Positions 18,189 through 40,046 of a stretch of DNA of 64,000 nt are shown piece by piece (position 1 is the stretch's first letter; each line of letters begins with the position of its first letter). A program made the position numbers and the translations under genes. This stretch comes from Patescibacteria group bacterium. Its GTDB lineage: Bacteria > Patescibacteriota > Patescibacteriia > UBA1558 > S5-K13. The notes beneath the pieces are model-generated. The model ran no database searches, was not told the DNA's origin, and was given only the letters and a program-made list of their open reading frames with translations. The DNA lies in contig JAQUXC010000001.1 of assembly GCA_028692545.1 (NCBI GenBank), positions 1,365 to 65,364 on the forward strand, given 5' to 3'.

Positions 18189-19678
<1,490 letters not shown>

Positions 19679-19918
19679 TTGGAATATTTTTGTGAAAAAT
19701 ATTCAAAAACTTATAAGTGAAAAAATTTCCTTATCTTTAGCTTTCTGCCACAATTTAATTGTCAAGTTGCGAAATTTTTATTATACAAATACTTTATTGC
19801 GTAAAAAAAATTAATATAGAATAAAAATATCTATATAGTAAAATAATATTATACCTTTTCAAGAAACATGTCAATACTTATTATTGATTTTTTTGTTGAT
19901 AAGTGAGAATATTAAATT

Positions 19919-27133: not shown

Positions 27134-27682
27134 AGTTTTTTATTATTAATAATGTTTATAATAATAGCATTATTATTGTATTTTGTCAACATAAATTTTT
27201 TTATTTTATAATTATAGTATTATAAATATTTAATATTTTAAACTTTGGATTAAAGTTTATTATTTATGTGTTTTAAGCTCTTGACTTATTTTTTATTTTC
27301 TATATAATTATTTACAGTTATCCACAAGTAATAATTAACAAAAAAACTTGTATCAAATAGAAAAAAATATAACAAACAAATATAGATTGAGCGGATTTTA
27401 ATACTCTAATTTTATTAGTTATAGAACCGCTAGATAGCGGTTTTTTTGAACCTTAAAAATGTAATCAATAACTAGTAGTAATATCAGGCTTTCTTATGAA
27501 GATTTATCTGGTAGAAATATTTTTTTCTCAAACTGGAGAAATCTTTTGTAGAATCTCTCGCACCTTGGTGCTACTTACTACTAATTATTGCTTATATTAT
27601 TGTGAGCAAAAATTAGCTCATTGAAAATTTATTTTAAGGTATACTGAAACAAAGAAATATTTTATGTTTCAGTGATTGCAAT

Positions 27683-30806
<3,124 letters not shown>

Positions 30807-30898
30807 GAAACATTAAGTGTTTGTTTGAAAGAAAGTATAACTTAAAATAAATTAAAATCATTAGATAGCTTGATGTGAATCACAGTTCACGTCAGGAA

Positions 30899-31012: not shown

Positions 31013-31047
31013 TGAAAAACTCGAGTTTATACTCGAGTTTTTCTTTT
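31013..31047 (+). terminator. Intrinsic terminator after 5S
   Basis: CTCGAGTTTATACTCGAG hairpin + T-run. Confidence 0.7.
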
Positions 31048-31282: not shown

Positions 31283-31331
31283 ATATCAATGGTAGAGGCG
31301 TAGCAATGCTACGCCTCTACGTGATGATTTT

Positions 31332-31940: not shown

Positions 31941-32034
31941 GAATTTATTTTATACCCAACGTCCGACGTTGGCAACGTCGGACGTTGCATCAGCTAAAGA
32001 AAATAAGGTAAAATAGCTATATAATAAAAATTTT

Positions 32035-33510
32035 ATGAATAGTTTTGAAAAAGGAAATCTAGCTCAGAATCTGGACAATTCAACAAGTTTAGAATTTGAA
32101 GAAAAATCAGAAGATTTTGTAATTGATCAAAAAGAAAATCAACAAGAAGAATTGATGAGTCTTTTGAATATAAATAAGGTAGAATTACAAATTATGATTT
32201 TAGAGTTAGAGGGTTATCTAAGTCAAGTAAATTTTGTACAACATTTGAAATTTAATTCTAGAGTTAAGAAGGGTTTTTTAAGTAATAACATTTTTAAGAA
32301 AGGAAAAGAAATTTTAGAAAGCAATATCCTTGAATCAAAAACGAGCATTAAAAGACCTTCTTCAAAAATAAGCTCAGATATTATTAGAGAATTAGATATA
32401 ATTAAAAAGATTTTTAATTTTAACGTATTAGATGTAGATCCGACAGCTCTAAATTTTTTATTGAAAGCTTTACAAGAAAATGATCTAGATAGAGTTTCTA
32501 AAATATTTAAATCTGGTAATGAATATGGAGTTGGGGGGCTAAATAAGGAATTTATTTTAGATGTAGATGAAAAAAGTGAGAATAAACTTTTAGAAATTGA
32601 AGATTTGTCGAAAGATAAAAAGCTTATATCAGATTTTTATAAATTATATGGAAACATTGTTATATCTGTAGATAATTATATAAATAGATTATCCGACTAT
32701 TGCAAAAAATTTACTTTAGAAGATTTAGATAAGGATAAATTAAAAGAAATAATTTTTAAGGATTTGCATGGTTCAGTTGATGAGGTTATGGAAATTTTAA
32801 TGACTACTAAGGAAAAATCAGATCAGTCCAAAAAAATTAAATATATATTAGAAGAGTTGAGCAATAAATTTATTAAAAGAAAAACAGTAACAAAACATTT
32901 TTTGGCTATTTTTATTGATTCAGTTAATATGAAAAATCCAAAAGATGATAAAAGTAAACTTTTTTTTGAGAGATTAAAATTAAATATGGAAAGAGTTATT
33001 CTTGATGAAAGTGTTGTTGATTTGCCAATAAACTTTAATCAAGAAATAGAGCATGATATAAGAGAATATAAACCAGAAATTAAAAATCCTCATAAAAAAC
33101 AAGTTTATATACCTATGGGTGTTTCTAGTGATATGGGATTTGTAGCAAATGACAAGCCACTTGAAGCTTTAAAAACCTTATTATGGGCTCAAAACCAAAA
33201 TACAGATATTAAATTTAGAGTAATAGACTCAATTCAAGAAAATAATTATAGAGCTCTCGGGATAGATGAAGACAGTGCAAATAGTATGTCAAGACGCAAA
33301 GGATTTGTAGATAGAGAGTGGTATGAAGAATATAACAAAGGTCTTAAATTATCAAATGATATACTTGGTTATGAAGGTAGATCTAGATTTGATGATGAAA
33401 ATAAATATTTAGATGATTTATGTGACAGAGATAAGTCTTTTCAATCTTGTTTTAATACTATGATTGAACCAAAATTATTTGAAAGAGCAAAAGAAAAAAT
33501 CCACAATTAA
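32035..33510 (+). CDS. Hypothetical protein, Lys/Glu/Asp-rich (491 aa)
   Basis: Long ORF; no recognisable motifs. Confidence 0.5.
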   Translation: MNSFEKGNLAQNLDNSTSLEFEEKSEDFVIDQKENQQEELMSLLNINKVELQIMILELEGYLSQVNFVQHLKFNSRVKKGFLSNNIFKKGKEILESNILESKTSIKRPSSKISSDIIRELDIIKKIFNFNVLDVDPTALNFLLKALQENDLDRVSKIFKSGNEYGVGGLNKEFILDVDEKSENKLLEIEDLSKDKKLISDFYKLYGNIVISVDNYINRLSDYCKKFTLEDLDKDKLKEIIFKDLHGSVDEVMEILMTTKEKSDQSKKIKYILEELSNKFIKRKTVTKHFLAIFIDSVNMKNPKDDKSKLFFERLKLNMERVILDESVVDLPINFNQEIEHDIREYKPEIKNPHKKQVYIPMGVSSDMGFVANDKPLEALKTLLWAQNQNTDIKFRVIDSIQENNYRALGIDEDSANSMSRRKGFVDREWYEEYNKGLKLSNDILGYEGRSRFDDENKYLDDLCDRDKSFQSCFNTMIEPKLFERAKEKIHN

Positions 33511-33524
33511 GTGAAGAGGAAATT

Positions 33525-34493
33525 ATGGATATATTATCTGGCTATCCAAAAGAAGAAGTCGCTTTTATACTTGGCTATAATGGACTCAAAATAGGTCATG
33601 AAAAAGAATTTAGATATGATATTTTAGCTAAAATAATTAGTGTTTATAAATTACTAAAAGAACATAAAGATGAGATAAGAGAGATTATTAAGACAAGCCC
33701 AGAAAGAGAAAATTATGATCCAAAATCTATAATAAGAGATTCAGATAGGTACATTAAAGATCTAAGTGTATTTTTGGGATCTTTAGAAGGACTAAGTGAA
33801 GAATACAAACAGATGCTTATTCAACTTTCTGAATTAGAAATAAAAGAGCCTCATCAAAAAGAGCAAATAGCAATATTGAAAAAGTCTATAAAAGAATATT
33901 TAAAAACAAATCCTAACGATAATAATACAAAAATTAATTTGAATAAATTCAAGGGTGCTGGATTATTTCAGTGGGAGCAAAGATATATTTTGAATTCATA
34001 TTCTGGTATAGCAAAACAAATAAAGAACAAAAAATGGTATGATGATTCAAAATTTCCAGAGTTTTATTATATACAAGATGCTGGAAAAAGTTTTGGTGTC
34101 AAAGATGAAGACAATGATTATTTTGATTTTAGGGAATTTTATTCTTCTTATAAAGAGGATATTAGTCCAGAAGATTTAAATCAAATAGTGTCAAAAAGCG
34201 GTTGGCAATCTTTTGCAACGTTTTTTGCATTAAATAGAGAAACACAGACTAAATATTTTAATAGTCAAATAAAACCACTTTTAGAAAATTATTATTTGGC
34301 GACATCTATTAATAAGAATCAAGCTATTGAGAGATACAAAAAAGATTCTAAAAATTTTTCTACTTTTTTCGATGTGATATTATTTATACAAAAAAATATA
34401 ATTTCAAAATCTTATTATGACTCAGCTCACGGAGACAAGAATTTTATAGATAATAGAAATAGTTATGATTTTGATGGAGAAATTTTATTATAA
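33525..34493 (+). CDS. Hypothetical protein (322 aa), co-operonic with upstream
   Basis: 14-nt gap from upstream ORF; no motifs recognised. Confidence 0.5.
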   Translation: MDILSGYPKEEVAFILGYNGLKIGHEKEFRYDILAKIISVYKLLKEHKDEIREIIKTSPERENYDPKSIIRDSDRYIKDLSVFLGSLEGLSEEYKQMLIQLSELEIKEPHQKEQIAILKKSIKEYLKTNPNDNNTKINLNKFKGAGLFQWEQRYILNSYSGIAKQIKNKKWYDDSKFPEFYYIQDAGKSFGVKDEDNDYFDFREFYSSYKEDISPEDLNQIVSKSGWQSFATFFALNRETQTKYFNSQIKPLLENYYLATSINKNQAIERYKKDSKNFSTFFDVILFIQKNIISKSYYDSAHGDKNFIDNRNSYDFDGEILL

Positions 34494-34557: not shown

Positions 34558-35310
34558 TTATTCTTTTGCGTTTTTCCAAACTATTTCAAATATAGATTTT
34601 TGGGTTTTGTATATTTCTTCGTTTTCTATAATTACGCCTATTAATTTTTTGTCAGAAAAAGTCATAAAAGAAACTTTGTTGTCATAAATTTCCATTTCAA
34701 GATACATTGGATATTCTTTTCCATCGATGTATCTGAGTTCTGTAACTTCTTTATCATAATCTTTCATATAATCTCTTGCATATGGAGTATCTGCAAGTAT
34801 AGCACGTTTATAAATTTTTAATTCTTTTCTTTTTGTAATGTATTTGTCATTTGCACGTCCCATGTATTTTTCCATTCCATAAATATCAGCATAGGTTACG
34901 ATTTCTGTTTTTGAAGACAGAGAATCATTGAGGGTTTTTGCAAGTCCGTCTTTTCCTTCATATATTCTTACTCCTGGCTGATTTGAAACAAGGTTAAAGC
35001 TTGATAGTAGCATTGGCATCTGGGAATCAAGAGAAATTTCGGCTTTTTTTACTTCTCTTTCTCTGTTCTCTATATATTCCCTTAGTTTATCTGGGTGATT
35101 TGGGGAAAAAGAGAGGATTTTATTGGTTTTTCCTTGTTTTATAAGTCCTTTTTTTACTAAATCTGATAAGGCATTGTATATAACACCTCTTTTTAATGGG
35201 GTTTTTTTGATAATATCACCTGCTAGTGACTTGCCATTTATAAGCAAATGTTCATATACAATGGCCTCATTTTGAGATAATCCTAACTCTATTAATAGAT
35301 CTTTGTGCAT
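34558..35310 (-). CDS. TrmB-family transcriptional regulator
   Basis: N-terminal winged-helix LGLSQNEAIVYEHLL...LSDLVKKGLI; C-terminal TrmB-like domain length. Confidence 0.65.
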   Translation of the reverse strand: MHKDLLIELGLSQNEAIVYEHLLINGKSLAGDIIKKTPLKRGVIYNALSDLVKKGLIKQGKTNKILSFSPNHPDKLREYIENREREVKKAEISLDSQMPMLLSSFNLVSNQPGVRIYEGKDGLAKTLNDSLSSKTEIVTYADIYGMEKYMGRANDKYITKRKELKIYKRAILADTPYARDYMKDYDKEVTELRYIDGKEYPMYLEMEIYDNKVSFMTFSDKKLIGVIIENEEIYKTQKSIFEIVWKNAKE

Positions 35311-35573
35311 ATGTTTTTGAGTTATCCACAGCTCATATTTAGAGCTATATTTGGAATAATTATTTAAATCTTTACAAAACCCCTTATTTATTGGGTTATG
35401 TTGATATTATACTATTATTTGAAAATAATATCAATTTTATTTGACAAATTTGTAAATAAATTTTATAAGAATATGTTATACAAATATGACAATAATTATA
35501 TATTATAAAAGATAATATAATATAGTAAATATAGGCATTTTATTGTATATTTATATATTACTTATCATAAGTA

Positions 35574-35608
35574 CTTGACAAGTCATTATAGATATGCTAT
35601 GATGATTA
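35574..35608 (+). promoter_or_regulatory. Consensus sigma70-type promoter TTGACA-17-TATGAT
   Basis: Perfect -35 and near-perfect -10 with 17-nt spacer at the left edge of the GC-elevated segment. Confidence 0.55.
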
Positions 35609-35611
35609 ATC

Positions 35612-36216
35612 AAGCTAAAGAAACAAAAAAATAGCTTGAGAAAGAAAGAACTTTAAAAAACTACATAAAAGCCATCTTAATAAACCAAGTGTTTAAAAAG
35701 ATGGTGCAAATAAGCTGATGTTAAGAAATCCTTCAATGCTTGTAAGGGTTTCTAACTAGCTTGTTCGTAGGATGAGGAGATTCCAAAAATGGAGTTAAAC
35801 ACTGATCGAGTTTCGCGAACAAACTTGATAACAGTGTCCTTTCAAGTAAGCCTTGTGTCTTCCCGAATTCTTATAAAAAGAGTCGAAGATCACTGAAAGA
35901 AAGCCACATCACCCGAAATCTTTTTAAGGAGATCGGCTGGGAAGTAAGGAATTAACCACTCTTTGCTCTCAGGAATTTCCTTACAAAGAGTCCCGGGTAA
36001 TAATTCGGGACTTTGTGTTAAAAAATAGACCTTCGAGGTTTTTGAACCTCGAAGGTCTGGGGAAAAATAGTTCTTTGAAAATTCATGTTATGTTATTCAC
36101 CGCTTTTTCTGATTATTGGATTAGTCATAAGAAGCGGTGAATAACCAGTATCTCTATTGTCTCTAACCACTTACTATTTGAAAGAGTAGAAGTTAAGGTG
36201 AGGCAAGGGAGGAGAT
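35612..36216 (+). ncRNA. ~600-nt structured leader/possible ncRNA preceding ORF 36217
   Basis: GC-elevated, multiple stable hairpins (e.g. GACCTTCGAGG...CCTCGAAGGTC at 36040-36070), no long ORF; downstream of consensus promoter. Confidence 0.35.
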
Positions 36217-36915
36217 ATGAAAAATATTTATTCAACAGTACTTTTTCTGGACAGTCGGTCCAGAGAAATATTTCCGGAGTTTGGGTCTATGACTCAAACT
36301 CTGGAGGGGTTAATTTTTCGACTGGGGATTAAATCTCCGGTTGAGGCTAGGGATTTTTTCCCTAACATCCGGGATGGAGCATTCATTTGTCCTTTCCCAA
36401 CTTTTATACCCCTAGAGGGGTATAATGCCCAGTCTTCGGCCGGGTTTGTAAGGATCGTTGGAGTTAGTTACTCCAACGCAACTCTTCTCGGGGGAATTTT
36501 TTCCGCCGGGAAGGGGTTATTCAAAACAAAGGAGTCCCTTCAGGGACTCCTTCTACCCCCGGAAACCTTATTCCGGTGGGCTGAAACCCATAAAAATCTT
36601 AATTGCAATACGGCAGATGCCGTGTTGGAAGGCTTGTATGCTCGTCAAGGGCATATGGGTCTTTATATAGTGGAGGGTCAGAGCAATTATGCTCGGGCCC
36701 TATACATCCAGCCTCCCAAGGGCTGGAGAGGAGAAATAATTACTTTTCCCTGGGAACACCGGACTGATATATTTGGTCCTGTTCCAACCGAGGTCACTCA
36801 GGAGGACCTACAACCCTCCGAGTCTCCAGACCTCACCTCCTCATCAGAACAAGAATGTCCTCCCGAGGAAGAGGTTTTGGAATTCGAAGTTCCAGAGATC
36901 CTCGTTGAGGATTAA
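36217..36915 (+). CDS. Hypothetical Pro/Gly-rich protein with acidic C-terminal tail (232 aa)
   Basis: SD GGGAGGAG 6 nt upstream; GC and amino-acid composition very different from neighbours. Confidence 0.55.
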   Translation: MKNIYSTVLFLDSRSREIFPEFGSMTQTLEGLIFRLGIKSPVEARDFFPNIRDGAFICPFPTFIPLEGYNAQSSAGFVRIVGVSYSNATLLGGIFSAGKGLFKTKESLQGLLLPPETLFRWAETHKNLNCNTADAVLEGLYARQGHMGLYIVEGQSNYARALYIQPPKGWRGEIITFPWEHRTDIFGPVPTEVTQEDLQPSESPDLTSSSEQECPPEEEVLEFEVPEILVED

Positions 36916-37052
36916 TTCCGGAAAAGTCAGTTTGTAAATTCTGACTTAAAACAAAAATTTATATGCGGTTATGGGAAGCGTGTTTGGTTACCGCTTCCCT
37001 CCTTTAATCAAATTGTTATTGAAAAATAATGGTTTGATATTGAGGATTATAA

Positions 37053-37087
37053 AAATCAACCTCCGAGGTTTTTAAACCTCGGAGGTT
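37053..37087 (+). repeat. Hairpin copy 2 (TCAACCTCCGAGG-TTTTTAAA-CCTCGGAGGTTGA), homologous to hairpin at 36040-36070
   Basis: Same loop, stem differs by compensatory T:A to C:G change. Confidence 0.6.
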
Positions 37088-37325
37088 GATAGATAGCTCT
37101 TTAACAAAATCTTAATAATATTTATTTGGCGCAGAACTTATTATTTATTATGTTCGCGCAAATAAATGATAATCCTATTTTATTTTAGGATAGTTTTATT
37201 ATGCAGAACTTATAGGACTTTTATATCTAATAATTTTTATACTTGGTCGTATAATTATTGTTGAATACAAAGGGCTTCTGCGTCGAAACAAATATTATTA
37301 AGAAAAAATTATCCATGGAGGAAAA

Positions 37326-37577
37326 ATGAAAAATCTATATCGTCAGGAGTGGGTGGAATCCAATCGCGACATGGGATGTCAGTGTGACGGATATTCTCTT
37401 CATTTAAGCAAAGAGGATGCTGCGGAATTTATTGGGGCATATTGGGACAATATGCCCGACAATGCCCCACAGACCTATTCACGCCCAGAAGGCGTGCCAC
37501 AACTTATTGAGGTTGATGAAGAAATCTATACCAAGATTTCAAAATCAAAATTTGGCGTTCGATTTTGGGAGCGCTAA
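37326..37577 (+). CDS. Hypothetical protein (83 aa)
   Basis: SD GGAGGA 7 nt upstream. Confidence 0.5.
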   Translation: MKNLYRQEWVESNRDMGCQCDGYSLHLSKEDAAEFIGAYWDNMPDNAPQTYSRPEGVPQLIEVDEEIYTKISKSKFGVRFWER

Positions 37578-37595
37578 AAATCAAAAGGAGGAAAA

Positions 37596-37886
37596 ATGCA
37601 AAGAATTTTCTTTTTTCTGGGAGAGTTGAAGTTTCAGCTTTCTCAAGTCCCACTCTTAGTGACATACGTTATCATTACTATGATAGCGGTGCCAATGTCA
37701 TTTCCCCCTTGCATGTTGGTTCAGGGGATTTCTCTTACTTCAATTGGAGTTGAGGAATGGCAAAAAATTTTGTCATTTTTTATTCAATTTGAAGTTTCTT
37801 GTTTATTTTTACTAATACTCTGGCTTGTTTGGAGTATAGTAAAGACAATTAAATCTCTCAAACAGATGAATTCTGCGAGAGAGTGA
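37596..37886 (+). CDS. Hypothetical small membrane protein (96 aa, 2-3 TM)
   Basis: SD AAGGAGG 6 nt upstream; hydrophobic segments. Confidence 0.5.
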   Translation: MQRIFFFLGELKFQLSQVPLLVTYVIITMIAVPMSFPPCMLVQGISLTSIGVEEWQKILSFFIQFEVSCLFLLILWLVWSIVKTIKSLKQMNSARE

Positions 37887-37912
37887 ATTTACAAGAACTA
37901 AAAGGAGGAAAG

Positions 37913-38026
37913 ATGAAATCAATTAAAAGCTCTGATAATACAATCAGGGCTTTTTACTTTAATAAATTTTTAATTGACAATATCATTGTTATATGTTATA
38001 ATTTTATAGTTCAATTAGTCCTTTAA
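37913..38026 (+). CDS. Possible small ORF (37 aa)
   Basis: SD AAGGAGG 6 nt upstream of ATG; below ORF-track cutoff. Confidence 0.3.
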   Translation: MKSIKSSDNTIRAFYFNKFLIDNIIVICYNFIVQLVL

Positions 38027-38132
38027 TAATTGAAAAGTGACGGCCGATGTCACTATAAATAAAGATTGGGGAAAATCCTACCAGAAAGGGTAAAAAATAC
38101 GCCCGCGACTTTGGGTAAAAAAGGAGGATACA

Positions 38133-38906
38133 ATGAAAGGTATCCAAAATAGTCAGAAATTCTCGTTAGAGAAATTTCAATCCCATAACTTAAAGGTTTC
38201 GATGGAACAAATAATTGGCCTTAATAATGGTCAATGTGTCGCAATATTCTATCATAAACCTTACTACTCACGGCCTAGTTACAATGTAGCCCAGTCTGAT
38301 CAAGATATTCATCAACTTTATGAGGGTCAGACTACCCAACACACGGGAACAGTAAGAAACGAAGTTTTGGTAATAAAAGAGATTGCCAAAAAGATTGTGT
38401 TGACTGAAGACAAGATATATTGCGGTTCTATAACTGGACTCGCGACGCTTATTGATGTATTTCAGAAGCAGTCCGGGGAGTTTTTTATTGAGGATAATCT
38501 GTGGACCAGTTGGAACAATTCTCAAGAATGGAATGAATCAATAAAGGATTTTTCCTTTAGAAGATTTGAGGTGGGGTCTGGTACGGAACTAGACAAGTAT
38601 AACCAAATGGGCATAGAAAAAATGGAGGAACGGAAAAATTTTTTCCAAAAGACTATGTCTGATGCTATTTCATTGGGAATATCCAAAGATAGAGCTCTTC
38701 AAATCGTGACGAATAATAATGTCACGGTTTTAGAAGCAGTTACTCAATTGGTATTCAAGGATGTTCCTAAAAAGGACGCTCGGAAAATAGCAAATAAAGC
38801 AAGTGCATGGAGCTATGCACAAGTGATTCTTGGGTATGATCCCAAGATCATAACTGGAAAATTCGAAAATTTAATTTCTGCGTGCCGAGAGTACGCAAAT
38901 TTATAA
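38133..38906 (+). CDS. Hypothetical protein (257 aa) with possible UBA-like helical segment
   Basis: SD AAGGAGG 6 nt upstream; segment LGISKDRALQIVTNNNVTVLEAVTQLV resembles UBA/EF-Ts N-terminal-type helical bundle (weak). Confidence 0.5.
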   Translation: MKGIQNSQKFSLEKFQSHNLKVSMEQIIGLNNGQCVAIFYHKPYYSRPSYNVAQSDQDIHQLYEGQTTQHTGTVRNEVLVIKEIAKKIVLTEDKIYCGSITGLATLIDVFQKQSGEFFIEDNLWTSWNNSQEWNESIKDFSFRRFEVGSGTELDKYNQMGIEKMEERKNFFQKTMSDAISLGISKDRALQIVTNNNVTVLEAVTQLVFKDVPKKDARKIANKASAWSYAQVILGYDPKIITGKFENLISACREYANL

Positions 38907-39062
38907 TAATATTATTCTGGGGATATGTATCACCTATACAATATTGATACACTTCCCCTTTTTTATTCCAAAAAATTTTTAATTTATAATTAAAATTGCC
39001 TTTCAAATTATAATTTGATATATTTGTATATGATTTACTTAATTTATTATTAATATTTTTTT

Positions 39063-40046
39063 ATGTTAAAAACTGCAGTTATTGGTCCTGGAAGATGGGG
39101 TACTACAAATGCTTGGATATTATCTGATATTAGTGAAAAGGTTTATGTATTTGGTGAAAGTGATGACAAAGATTTGATAAATTTAAAAGAAAAAAGAGAA
39201 AATGATTATATAAAATTGAAAGACAATATAGCATTGTCATCTGATATAAATGAAGTCCTAAATTATGCAAGTGATTTTGTCTGTGTTGTAATAAACGGAC
39301 AAAATACAAGAGAATTTTTTGAAAAATACAAAAATGAATTTTTAAATTACAAAGGTGATGTAGTATTGATGATGAAATCTCTTGAAAAAGAAACTGGCAT
39401 GAGACTTTCCAAAATTTATGAAGAAGTCACAGGACGTAGCGACAATTTGGCAGTTTTGGTTGGCCCTGCTCATCCACAAGATTTGGTAAATGGACTTCCA
39501 ACTGCAATGGTTGTCTCAGGTACAAATCAAGAAGTAATAAATCGTATTGAAATGAAATTCAATCATCCGCTTTATAGATTGTATTGGAATGAAGATTTAA
39601 TAGGAGTAGAAATTGGTGCAGCACTAAAAAATACAATTGGTATTATGGCTGGAATTTTGTCAGGACTTAACATGGAACCATGTTATGGAATTCTTATAAC
39701 TCGTGGTCCAATAGAAGTTTCAAAAATTATAAAAGCACATGGAGGAGAATTTCATACCCCATTTGGACTTTCGCATTTAGGCGATTATGCTGCGACTGTT
39801 TTTTCTCATTATAGTTTTAATTTTCAATATGGAAAAACATTTGCAATGGGAGAAGATTGGGATAAGAGCAAGGTCGCAGAAGGATCTGAGACTATTTTAG
39901 CAGTAAAAGAATTAACCGGAGATTTCAAAAAAATAGATGCTCCAATTCACAGAGCACTTTATAATATTTTGTATAATAGTGGAGATGTAAAAAAAGAATT
40001 GAGAGTATTGTTTGAAAAATCCAAAAGACATGAGTTTTGGGATTGA
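39063..40046 (+). CDS. gpsA: NAD(P)H-dependent glycerol-3-phosphate dehydrogenase
   Basis: N-terminal VIGPGRWGTTNA Rossmann motif, length and C-terminal domain pattern of GpsA. Confidence 0.75.
   Translation: MLKTAVIGPGRWGTTNAWILSDISEKVYVFGESDDKDLINLKEKRENDYIKLKDNIALSSDINEVLNYASDFVCVVINGQNTREFFEKYKNEFLNYKGDVVLMMKSLEKETGMRLSKIYEEVTGRSDNLAVLVGPAHPQDLVNGLPTAMVVSGTNQEVINRIEMKFNHPLYRLYWNEDLIGVEIGAALKNTIGIMAGILSGLNMEPCYGILITRGPIEVSKIIKAHGGEFHTPFGLSHLGDYAATVFSHYSFNFQYGKTFAMGEDWDKSKVAEGSETILAVKELTGDFKKIDAPIHRALYNILYNSGDVKKELRVLFEKSKRHEFWD

Follow-up and report, generated by a model that had tools for sequence, protein, structure and literature searches.

A TrmB-linked locus with a structured leader and hairpin-rich coding transcripts in Candidate Phyla Radiation bacteria

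Introduction

The large structured RNAs OLE, GOLLD, ROOL and raiA came from an approach directed at GC-rich intergenic regions (PMC8723152, PMC11109978). Here we describe a locus that can be compared with them, located in a 64,000-nt stretch (the window) of contig JAQUXC010000001.1 from a metagenome-assembled genome (MAG) of the Patescibacteria, or Candidate Phyla Radiation (CPR). In this window, whose overall GC content is 0.30, a GC-rich segment lies between gpsA and the gene for a TrmB-family helix-turn-helix (HTH) regulator, and contains a strong promoter, a non-coding leader of ~600 nt and open reading frames (ORFs) numbered ORF1 to ORF5. As with OLE, GOLLD, ROOL and raiA, a long intergenic stretch stands out by its GC content, is densely structured and carries a conserved covarying motif; unlike these RNAs, it has no Rfam match, it forms a 5′ leader continuous with translated ORFs, and the anomaly runs on through the coding sequences. 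Literature searches returned no earlier description of the locus, of the leader motif or of the ORF1 protein family, and the locus is a new kind, previously undescribed in CPR bacteria. The descriptive findings on it are well supported.

The genes behind the leader resemble integron and CALIN arrays in having a fixed promoter, promoterless same-strand ORFs, intervening hairpins and variable slot genes. They differ in the conserved leader of ~600 nt ahead of them, in the lack of an integrase in the contexts searched, in hairpins that on inspection show no attC features, and in boundaries at Shine-Dalgarno (SD) sequences and 3′ modules, which suggest homologous rather than site-specific exchange. 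In the minimal mobile elements of Neisseria and at some other loci, conserved flanks recombine homologously and thereby swap alternative genes. The present locus shares with them a single slot holding unrelated genes, conserved bounds and the absence of a dedicated recombinase, but its flanks are short non-coding RNA modules within one transcript and not housekeeping genes.

Type I toxin mRNAs such as tisB and zorO are highly structured and have long 5′ untranslated regions (UTRs) (PMC6690012, PMC5397157). Type I toxins are recognised by a sequestered SD with an upstream standby site, a small hydrophobic toxin and an antisense RNA. The locus has a similarly long structured leader, with a hairpin and then a conserved single-stranded stretch before the ribosome binding site, and small hydrophobic ORFs in some slots only (58 aa in one relative; ORF3). 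Its SDs, however, are not consistently sequestered, its payload is a soluble domain of ~190 residues and its whole coding region is structured. TIGR-Tas systems, found in phages and CPR genomes, combine a Nop-domain Tas protein with box C/D units that hold two 8-12-nt spacers (PMC12045711). Tandem hairpins under a single promoter in CPR genomes recall that system, but no ORF of the locus encodes a Nop domain, ORF1 is beta-rich, there is no repeated unit or box C/D, and the hairpin loops measure 4-9 nt as against about 30 nt, with two spacers, in TIGR-Tas.

Two further systems bear on the regulator and on the size of the segment. In Thermococcales, TrmB controls operons with sugar transporter or glycolytic targets. 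Here, too, a TrmB HTH gene stands beside its presumed target promoter, with a TATCA palindrome at the -35 element, although the targets are not sugar transporters or glycolytic genes, the regulator has no assigned effector domain and only half of the palindrome is conserved in a syntenic relative. Single-stranded RNA phages (Leviviricetes) have plus-strand RNAs of ~3.5 kb with few ORFs and pervasive structure. The segment matches them in length (~3.5 kb), in its few ORFs and in pervasive secondary structure, but it is chromosomal, has a sigma-70 promoter and encodes no homolog of a replicase, coat or maturation protein.

Results

A compositionally exceptional segment made of two transcription units

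A sequence-only reading of the window had reported a sharp rise in GC content between the TrmB gene and gpsA, and this is borne out by profiles in 400-nt windows and by GC content at third codon positions (GC3). GC is 0.36-0.49 at 35600-37000 and 0.30-0.39 from there to 38900, with 0.22-0.30 on both flanks. GC3 reaches 0.446 in ORF1 and 0.36 in ORF5, 3 to 5 standard deviations over host genes; in the 42 ORFs of the window that served as reference set for composition and SD signals it is 0.185 ± 0.054, with a maximum of 0.342. All five ORFs have GGAGG or AAGGAGG 4-5 nt before the start, whereas an SD of at least 5 nt occurs in 4 of the 42 reference ORFs and more than half (22/42) have none, although the 16S rRNA 3′ end reads CACCUCCUU. 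AAGGAGG had been placed 6-8 nt upstream of every ORF; the strong SDs stand, but the exact heptamer is confined to ORF3, ORF4 and ORF5 (ORF1, GGGAGGAG; ORF2, TGGAGGA).

The consensus promoter noted earlier, here called P1, is in place, and the hairpin-rich ORF-free stretch of ~600 nt behind it folds far beyond shuffled sequence. Open frames of 232, 83, 96, 37 and 257 aa are likewise present, but the 37-aa ORF4 (37913-38026) is not a gene: its frame covers an intrinsic terminator and a second consensus promoter, P2, and aligns to non-coding DNA in a relative. Terminator and P2 set ORF5 apart, and the notion of one five-gene unit falls. The segment is two transcription units, not one acquired cassette: unit 1, predicted to extend from P1 to the terminator (Table 1), and unit 2, with ORF5. 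What remains of the operon interpretation is a promoter-driven unit that is exceptional in composition and translation signals; what remains of the cassette interpretation is that genes are swapped in slots. Recent acquisition fails to account for the composition. NCBI annotates ORF1 (PHZ07_00270), ORF2 (PHZ07_00275) and ORF5 (PHZ07_00280) as hypothetical proteins. The high GC, the promoter, the structured leader and the strong SDs are real and statistically exceptional.

The locus type recurs in other CPR lineages

A neighbourhood search, also proposed with the sequence-only reading, recovered the TrmB/leader/ORF1 layout in other CPR contigs. Homologs of ORF1 led to nine further loci (L009-L014 and L016-L018), one of which, L012, stops at a contig end; the window and the other eight make up the nine complete contexts. 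In L011 (Berkelbacteria), L013, L014, L016 and L017, a divergent TrmB gene is followed by 660-1320 nt with no called gene and then by the ORF1 homolog, which is preceded by small lineage-specific ORFs in all of these except L016. A TrmB neighbour is present in six of the nine complete contexts and a gene-free leader of at least 650 nt in seven; L018, which has no TrmB, has a gene-free stretch of 974 nt. The TrmB proteins of the window, L011, L013, L014 and L016 are mutual full-length homologs with 25-39% identity. Beyond this shared layout the loci have nothing in common, the small ORFs being all different. These comparisons establish a conserved set in which TrmB and a strong promoter go together with a leader that carries a covarying hairpin and with genes of the ORF1 family.

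Two closer relatives, both without an ORF1 homolog in the corresponding slot, were available for the window itself: L008, a Candidatus Komeilibacteria contig reached through the DNA pattern of the SD module, and L007, a Logan contig that shares ORF2 and was reached through its ORF2 homolog P0006. The window and L008 are syntenic over a large upstream gene, TrmB, the promoter and the whole leader to the ORF1 start (34558-36223, 76% identity), and the identity of the leader (76%) resembles that of the adjoining TrmB gene. The P1 counterpart in L008 is TTGACA-17-TACTAT. A 7-1-7 perfect palindrome, TACTTATCATAAGTA (35559-35573), which contains TATCA, adjoins the P1 -35 element and is a possible TrmB operator; L008 keeps only its left half (TACTTATCA). 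The window TrmB gene has host-like composition (GC 0.30, GC3 0.22) and no excess RNA folding (z -0.5). The gene upstream of TrmB is split into two ORFs here (491 and 322 aa; 32035-34493) and is a single 1174-aa ORF in L008 (2635-6159, minus strand), with no Pfam domain match.

The left junction (TrmB-leader-ORF1) shows no difference between independent Logan assemblies of two runs, and a gpsA-based synteny search in reference genomes gave no match. The Logan contigs L005 and L006, independent assemblies of the same strain, both end in the AT-rich spacer before ORF2, at ~37139 and 37211; these breaks after slot 1 may reflect strain heterogeneity at a cassette boundary. No integrase or transposase and no convincing terminal repeat was found, in agreement with the earlier reading. 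One weak AT-rich inverted repeat of 27 nt, with 78% complementarity, has its arms on either side of the segment (35466-35492 / 39015-39041), probably by chance in AT-rich DNA.

Toxin-antitoxin (TA) or abortive-infection (Abi) genes (AbiEii, HEPN/NTase, PIN, PemK) adjoin several ORF1-family loci. Such genes are common in CPR genomes, and this adjacency may be coincidental. PADLOC gave no match for three ORF1 homologs, and TrmB matched only the winged-HTH regions of CasR/Csa3 models. Scans of viral contigs (IMG/VR) with ORF1, ORF2 and ORF5 gave no relatives; the family alignment was too divergent for such a scan. Two DNA-pattern scans of metagenomes returned zero matches.

A covarying hairpin in the leader

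Folding was assessed as z scores, which express the excess over dinucleotide shuffles and which composition alone cannot yield at the values seen here. In sliding windows, the plus strand of 35625-37200 has a mean z of -6.2 and a minimum of -9.5; on coding strands the corresponding values are -1.4 for 23S rRNA, -1.6 for 16S rRNA and -0.2 to -0.6 for ordinary genes of the window. The plus strand is much more stable than the minus strand, a G-U signature of an RNA-level feature. The global minimum-free-energy (MFE) fold is a series of ~35-40 local hairpins, so that a rod-like (viroid/obelisk-type) or long-range fold was rejected. The leaders of the window and L008 have equal MFE (-214 kcal/mol) and 120 shared pairs but no shared ORF, and different hairpins substitute for each other at the same leader position. 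The first slid-partner control for this whole-leader comparison was ill-posed and was discarded.

The core motif of the leader is a three-tier hairpin in which CGG is unpaired, GAAAU bulges out and the loop, AUUAACCAC, is invariant. Positions 35892-35966 are nearly invariant between the window and L008, and L014 matches at 72% over 85 nt (E 1.6e-7). A covariance model recovered the motif in the window (110 bits), L008, L014, L016 and L017, always in the leader and on the transcribed strand; the loop reads CUUAACCCAC in L016 and AUAAACCAC in L017, where both motifs lie between TrmB and the first ORF. Across the five sequences, 95.7% of alignment cells are paired and 15 of the 25 pairs show changes on both sides. 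At most one of 500 shuffles (0-1/500) attained these values, and slid partners gave 0-4 such pairs and ~45% pairing. The alignment thus indicates genuine compensatory evolution across five lineages, and the core hairpin, with its UAACCAC-type loop, is most likely recognised by a partner, either protein or RNA. Pairing of the loop with 16S rRNA, or with another stretch of the transcript, was tried as an explanation and found unsupported, and enrichment of the TAACCAC heptamer was not significant (10 observed, 5.2 expected). Rfam gave no match at gathering thresholds over 35000-39500, the best hit at E <=10 scoring 25.9 bits against a cut-off of 50 bits, and no match in six related loci; besides OLE, GOLLD, ROOL and raiA, the families covered include riboswitches, HEARO and group I/II introns.

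Downstream of the core motif, the region of a 14-bp perfect hairpin is 86% identical over 36 nt to that of the hairpin at 37055-37090; two different hairpins occupy its position in L008. Directly 3′ of it lies the single-stranded junction motif ATAGTTCTTTGAAAATTC. The junction core GTTCTTTGAAA(A), also written (A)A(T)AGTTCTTTGAAAA, stands upstream of cassettes at six sites (Table 1); each copy is on the transcribed strand, just behind a hairpin, with 110-170 nt between it and the cassette start, and it recurs even in lineages whose ORF1 is only ~32% identical. The idea of a sequestered SD with a ribosome standby site at the GTTCTTTGAAAA junction, as in tisB (PMC6690012), was inconsistent across loci: the probability that the SD is unpaired is typically 0.5-0.9 and ranges from 0.04 to 0.98, with no consistent sequestration.

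ORF1 belongs to a protein family restricted in its named sources to CPR lineages

ORF1 had been thought to match no recognisable family. Curated libraries indeed hold no match (no Pfam, NCBIfam, PHROG, PADLOC or PDB-sequence hit), and a word-indexed search returned ORF1 itself only. An exhaustive phmmer (HMMER) search overturned its orphan status, with 67 remote relatives (E 7e-16 to 1e-3, 30-44% identity) that align in a single in-frame stretch over residues 6-190 (~185 residues). Members from named sources are Candidatus Berkelbacteria and Pacebacteria/Paceibacterota. The family has the invariants R35, A71, G76, G92, G154-Q155-S156 and E180 and the motifs AQSSAGF, EGQSDY and FPxEHRxD; the invariant polar residues look enzyme-like. 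An AlphaFold2 model from an alignment of 34 relatives reached pLDDT 88 and pTM 0.77, with no convincing structural neighbour in PDB or BFVD.

The open frame spans 237 codons, a length attained in 0 of 2000 shuffles and compared with only 113-130 codons in the rRNAs, and its codon-position composition is of coding type, as is that of the L011 homolog (GC at positions 1/2/3 = 0.74/0.50/0.87). On open-frame statistics, homologs, codon-position composition and a confident fold, a spurious frame in a giant non-coding RNA (ncRNA) was rejected; ORF1 is a real protein and a member of a new, uncharacterised CPR family.

GC-enriched, hairpin-tiled coding transcripts

In all nine complete contexts the ORF1 unit is richer in GC than its host, less markedly in L010 and L016, and folds in excess. 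ORF1-family genes have GC contents of 0.46-0.70, always over the local host (Table 1); L013, L014, L017 and L018 are likewise enriched in the ORF1 unit, and the partner TrmB genes tested keep host composition. The coding sequence of L009 is a near-unbroken run of 10-17-bp hairpins (-649 kcal/mol over 1061 nt). In seven ORF1-family genes, sense z is -3.2 to -12.8, compared with -0.5 to +1.2 in adjacent TrmB and host genes, and the sense MFE lies 18-50 kcal/mol below that of the antisense in 7/7. In the window, L014, L017 and L018, the anomaly extends from the promoter as far as the terminator.

Hairpin positions were not found to be conserved across the ORF1 family: 39 hairpin centres coincide on the protein alignment against 34.6 ± 4.8 expected (p about 0.2). 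This lineage-specific placement suggests that a generally closed RNA, rather than one shape, would be what is selected. Perfect palindromes acting at the DNA level were rejected as the cause, being just mildly enriched, and the majority of stems depend on G-U pairs.

Unrelated genes occupy the same slots

Conserved non-coding modules, an SD module on one side and a 3′ hairpin on the other, bracket slots in which the nearest relatives carry unrelated genes. The expression adaptor before slot 1 is 84-88% identical in L007 and in two L008 copies, yet slot 1 holds a different gene in each (Table 1). Window positions 36926-37047, within the post-cassette module, are 88% identical to L008, where they lie 3′ of a different cassette; beyond this module L008 has its second copy of the SD module and then an unrelated GC-rich ORF cut by the contig edge. 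Two related hairpins 1030 nt apart flank ORF1. The AT-rich spacer before ORF2 is 83% identical to L007, more than ORF2 itself, and includes a 60-nt block identical in the two (37226-37286). ORF2 is a real gene.

In slot 2, L007 lacks ORF3 exactly between the AAAAGGAGGAAAnATG direct repeats, a duplicated SD-ATG sequence, and ORF3 is an insertion. Its description as a small membrane protein holds: it is membrane-like, with a T-rich second codon position. No homolog of ORF3 was found, and neither ORF2 nor ORF3 has a PADLOC match. These observations argue that the genes behind the leader are exchangeable in a cassette-like manner, and, as no recombinase was found in the contexts searched, homologous recombination between the modules would be the simplest mechanism.

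Unit 2 is a separate conserved unit

The terminator of unit 1 aligns with the terminator hairpin of L007. The window, L001, L004 and L007 all have the same P2 -35 region, TTGACAAT, and DNA similarity to the relatives of ORF5 starts 100-160 nt upstream of the gene. Conservation is higher in the 5′ UTR of ORF5 than in the coding part of the gene; the middle hairpin has two compensatory pairs and a conserved CCAGAA loop, making the UTR a candidate cis-regulatory RNA. Differences between ORF5 and its homologs fall at codon positions 1/2/3 in proportions 0.24/0.16/0.60, which indicates purifying selection on the protein. In other Patescibacteria (L001 6936-8483; L002 5697-7244), relatives of ORF5 lie by themselves in the classical origin region between rnpA and dnaA, and there too they are GC3-rich (0.41 against a genome GC of 0.32). 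The AlphaFold2 model of ORF5 has pLDDT 61 and no fold match, a comparison of its profile with PDB sequences matched no Tas or Nop protein, and PADLOC gave no match. ORF5 is a separate conserved unit with its own promoter and structured 5′ UTR.

Table 1 Features of the locus and of related contigs, with coordinates. Positions refer to the window unless a contig is named.
Feature	Position	Strand	Details
TrmB-family HTH regulator gene	34558-35310	-	PF01978, E 3.6e-11; divergent from unit 1
Promoter P1	35575-35603	+	TTGACA-17-TATGAT with TG extension; 11/12 consensus matches
Non-coding leader	35604-36216	+	~600 nt; chain of local hairpins, z -5 to -10
Leader core motif	35891-35993	+	25-bp three-tier hairpin, about 35923-35987
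14-bp perfect hairpin	36027-36058	+	first copy of inter-cassette hairpin
Junction motif ATAGTTCTTTGAAAATTC	36067-36085	+	single-stranded, directly 3′ of hairpin
GTTCTTTGAAA sites	36070; L007 3; L008 1120 and 468 (-); L009 5888; L018 4833
Expression adaptor before slot 1	36092-36232	+	long hairpin 36092-36145; SD 36205-36214; ATG 36217 and first codons
ORF1 (occupant of slot 1)	36217-36915	+	232 aa; beta-rich domain of ~190 residues and acidic disordered tail
Slot 1 content			window, ORF1 (232 aa); L007, 58-aa hydrophobic ORF; L008, 108-aa protein with N-terminal transmembrane segment
Post-cassette module	36926-37090	+	hairpins about 36924-36947 and 36973-37002; 16-bp perfect hairpin 37055-37090
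AT-rich spacer before ORF2	37098-37325	+	83% identical to L007
ORF2	37326-37577	+	83 aa; 71%-identical homolog P0006 in L007; coding-type composition
Slot 2 with ORF3	37594-37905	+	ORF3 37596-37886, 96 aa, membrane-like; bounded by AAAAGGAGGAAAnATG direct repeats
Intrinsic terminator of unit 1 (predicted)	37925-37954	+	12-bp stem and U run; -14.6 kcal/mol, z -6.1
Promoter P2	37974-38002	+	perfect TTGACA-17-TATAAT with TG; 12/12 matches; serves ORF5
ORF5 5′ UTR	38036-38132	+	three hairpins; counterparts L001 7395-7491, L004 148-244
ORF5	38133-38906	+	257 aa; homologs at 66-67% identity; GC3-rich
ORF1-family gene, window			GC 0.47; host or flank 0.30
ORF1-family gene, L009			GC 0.59, GC3 0.68; host GC3 0.23
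ORF1-family gene, L011			GC 0.70, GC3 0.87; TrmB GC 0.48
Toxin-antitoxin/abortive-infection neighbours	L009 7029-8290; L012 2658-7353; L013 8682-9936; L014 628-1205

Other features of the window

The 16S rRNA gene (18189-19679, minus strand) is not linked to the 23S rRNA gene (27672-30807, plus strand). The 23S match covers 3136 nt against a 2925-nt model, ~210 nt extra that would represent an insertion or expansion. Three GC-rich perfect hairpins of 13-14 bp follow 3′ of the 5S rRNA gene (31014-31043, 31292-31320 and 31957-31987). An operator-like palindrome, (AA)ATTGTTCCACGTGGAACAAT(TT), occurs twice, at 342-361 and 585-608, 243 nt apart.

Discussion

The interpretation that we favour, by a narrow lead over its negation, is that unit 1 represents, in this genome, a locus type conserved in the CPR and has been selected for a closed, hairpin-packed mRNA. 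Under such a scheme, TrmB would gate transcription from P1, the core hairpin of the leader would bind a protein or RNA partner, and the closed fold would give a long-lived transcript that resists nucleases attacking single strands. Ribosomes would enter through the strong SDs, most of which fall in unpaired gaps between hairpins. With a closed RNA, and in a genome that mostly does without SDs, translation would depend on them. The recurrent payload would be the ORF1-family protein, with the other slot genes swapped by recombination between modules.

Several observations weigh against this interpretation. TrmB is absent from three of the nine complete contexts (L009, L010 and L018). The core motif is defined by five sequences only, in an alignment fitted to the model; it was not found in L009, L010, L011 or L018, and L013 has only two weak look-alikes, whose loops are of CUAACCAC type. 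Sense and antisense z differ modestly, antisense z being strongly negative too, and a contribution to the excess structure at the DNA level may exist. Cassette exchange is known from two relatives, both of them short or end-cut contigs. Transcription start, terminators and operon limits are predictions, and nuclease resistance or longevity as the selected property is purely inferred.

The strongest competitor, which we nevertheless hold to be unlikely, is recently acquired foreign DNA, such as what is left of a mobile element, prophage or plasmid whose donor was richer in GC and made strong use of SDs. It would account for a GC3 that lies 3 to 5 standard deviations over the host, for SD use unlike that of the host and for slot content that differs between close relatives, and virus- or mobile-associated neighbours (STIV_B116-like, Bro-N, AbiEii, HEPN/NTase) do occur at some loci. 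However, synteny with L008 (76% identity) takes in the left junction, the promoter and the leader, the layout is common to lineages whose TrmB proteins are only 25-39% identical, and the GC of the unit varies by host (0.46-0.70), unlike a single donor pool. The excess folding, measured against dinucleotide shuffles, also goes beyond composition. There is no integrase or transposase, no convincing terminal repeat and no mobile-element match: PHROG gave nothing below E 0.006, and blastn found nothing in 50,697 phage and 72,556 plasmid records. An origin of the unit as an integron-like (CALIN-type) array, with promoterless cassettes put in at hairpin sites 3′ of a fixed promoter, seems very unlikely to us. 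The strong promoter, same-strand ORFs, intervening hairpin modules, unrelated genes in one slot and the pair of related hairpins around ORF1 fit such an array, but no tyrosine recombinase was found among the ORFs at 33.5-40.5 kb or in 10 homologous contexts. On inspection, the two hairpins (36027-36058 and 37055-37090) are perfect, with no extrahelical bases and no GTTRRRY core; the slot edges lie at the SD/ATG and at the conserved 3′ module, outside the hairpins, and hairpin-tiled coding sequences would be left unexplained. More improbable still is an assembly chimera with a higher-GC organism, to which we give the least credence of all. An abrupt shift in a MAG and the two Logan contigs that end within the spacer would be expected of one, yet the left junction is identical in two Logan runs and syntenic in L008, the order ORF1/spacer/ORF2/terminator/P2 is matched piecewise by L007 and L008 (left and middle parts), and the same architecture appears in unrelated assemblies.

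Other explanations concern the process behind the GC excess rather than the origin of the DNA. GC-biased gene conversion with template switching at a recombination hot spot, in which palindromes would be neutral and the RNA structure functionless, is improbable as the whole account, a little more so than foreign DNA, but it may contribute, and it could add to the GC excess under the favoured interpretation as well. The locus does recombine, hairpin positions are lineage-specific and the antisense strand folds well. On the other hand, the anomaly is bounded by promoter and terminator and spares TrmB in the loci tested, the sense strand is more stable in 7/7 genes, the leader motif shows compensatory change, and the pattern spans deep CPR lineages. 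That the GC-rich core (35600-37100) is one large structured ncRNA in which ORF1 is spurious is scarcely credible, little more so than a chimera. The rRNA-like GC, the rRNA genes being the only other GC-rich parts of the window, and the extreme z through ORF1 agree with this view, as do the lack of a curated family and a word-indexed search that found no homolog; but a frame of 237 codons, 67 in-frame relatives, a pLDDT of 88 and coding-type GC1/2/3 in L011 speak for a protein, and Rfam gave no match even at E <=10. A non-coding RNA reading is retained for the leader upstream of ORF1.

The notion of a closed, selected mRNA can be extended, as a speculation that we regard as doubtful though less remote than any of these competitors, to a dedicated CPR class of armoured, nearly fully double-stranded, TrmB-gated mRNAs with the leader hairpin as a handle. 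If this is true, the payload, an ORF1-family enzyme together with swappable small proteins, would be expressed or persist while single-strand RNases, such as those of the abundant TA and Abi systems, destroy ordinary mRNA; alternatively, the RNA itself would be bound, packaged or exported. Such a class would add a post-transcriptional strategy, an RNA motif and a protein fold that are all new.

A large part of bacterial diversity belongs to the CPR/Patescibacteria, in which the majority of genes and nearly all regulatory RNA are uncharacterised. The locus described here joins a leader RNA motif tied to a regulator family with a confidently folded protein family that has no relatives outside itself. 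Its third novelty, and the most surprising, is the hairpin-tiled, GC-enriched coding transcripts seen in every lineage examined, which could bear on how mRNAs survive amid RNase toxins or on RNA recognition or packaging. As a caution, GC islands in AT-rich MAGs need not be foreign DNA or RNA genes. The transcripts imply sustained selection, or an unrecognised mutational process, acting on the whole-transcript structure of a defined set of genes in these bacteria.

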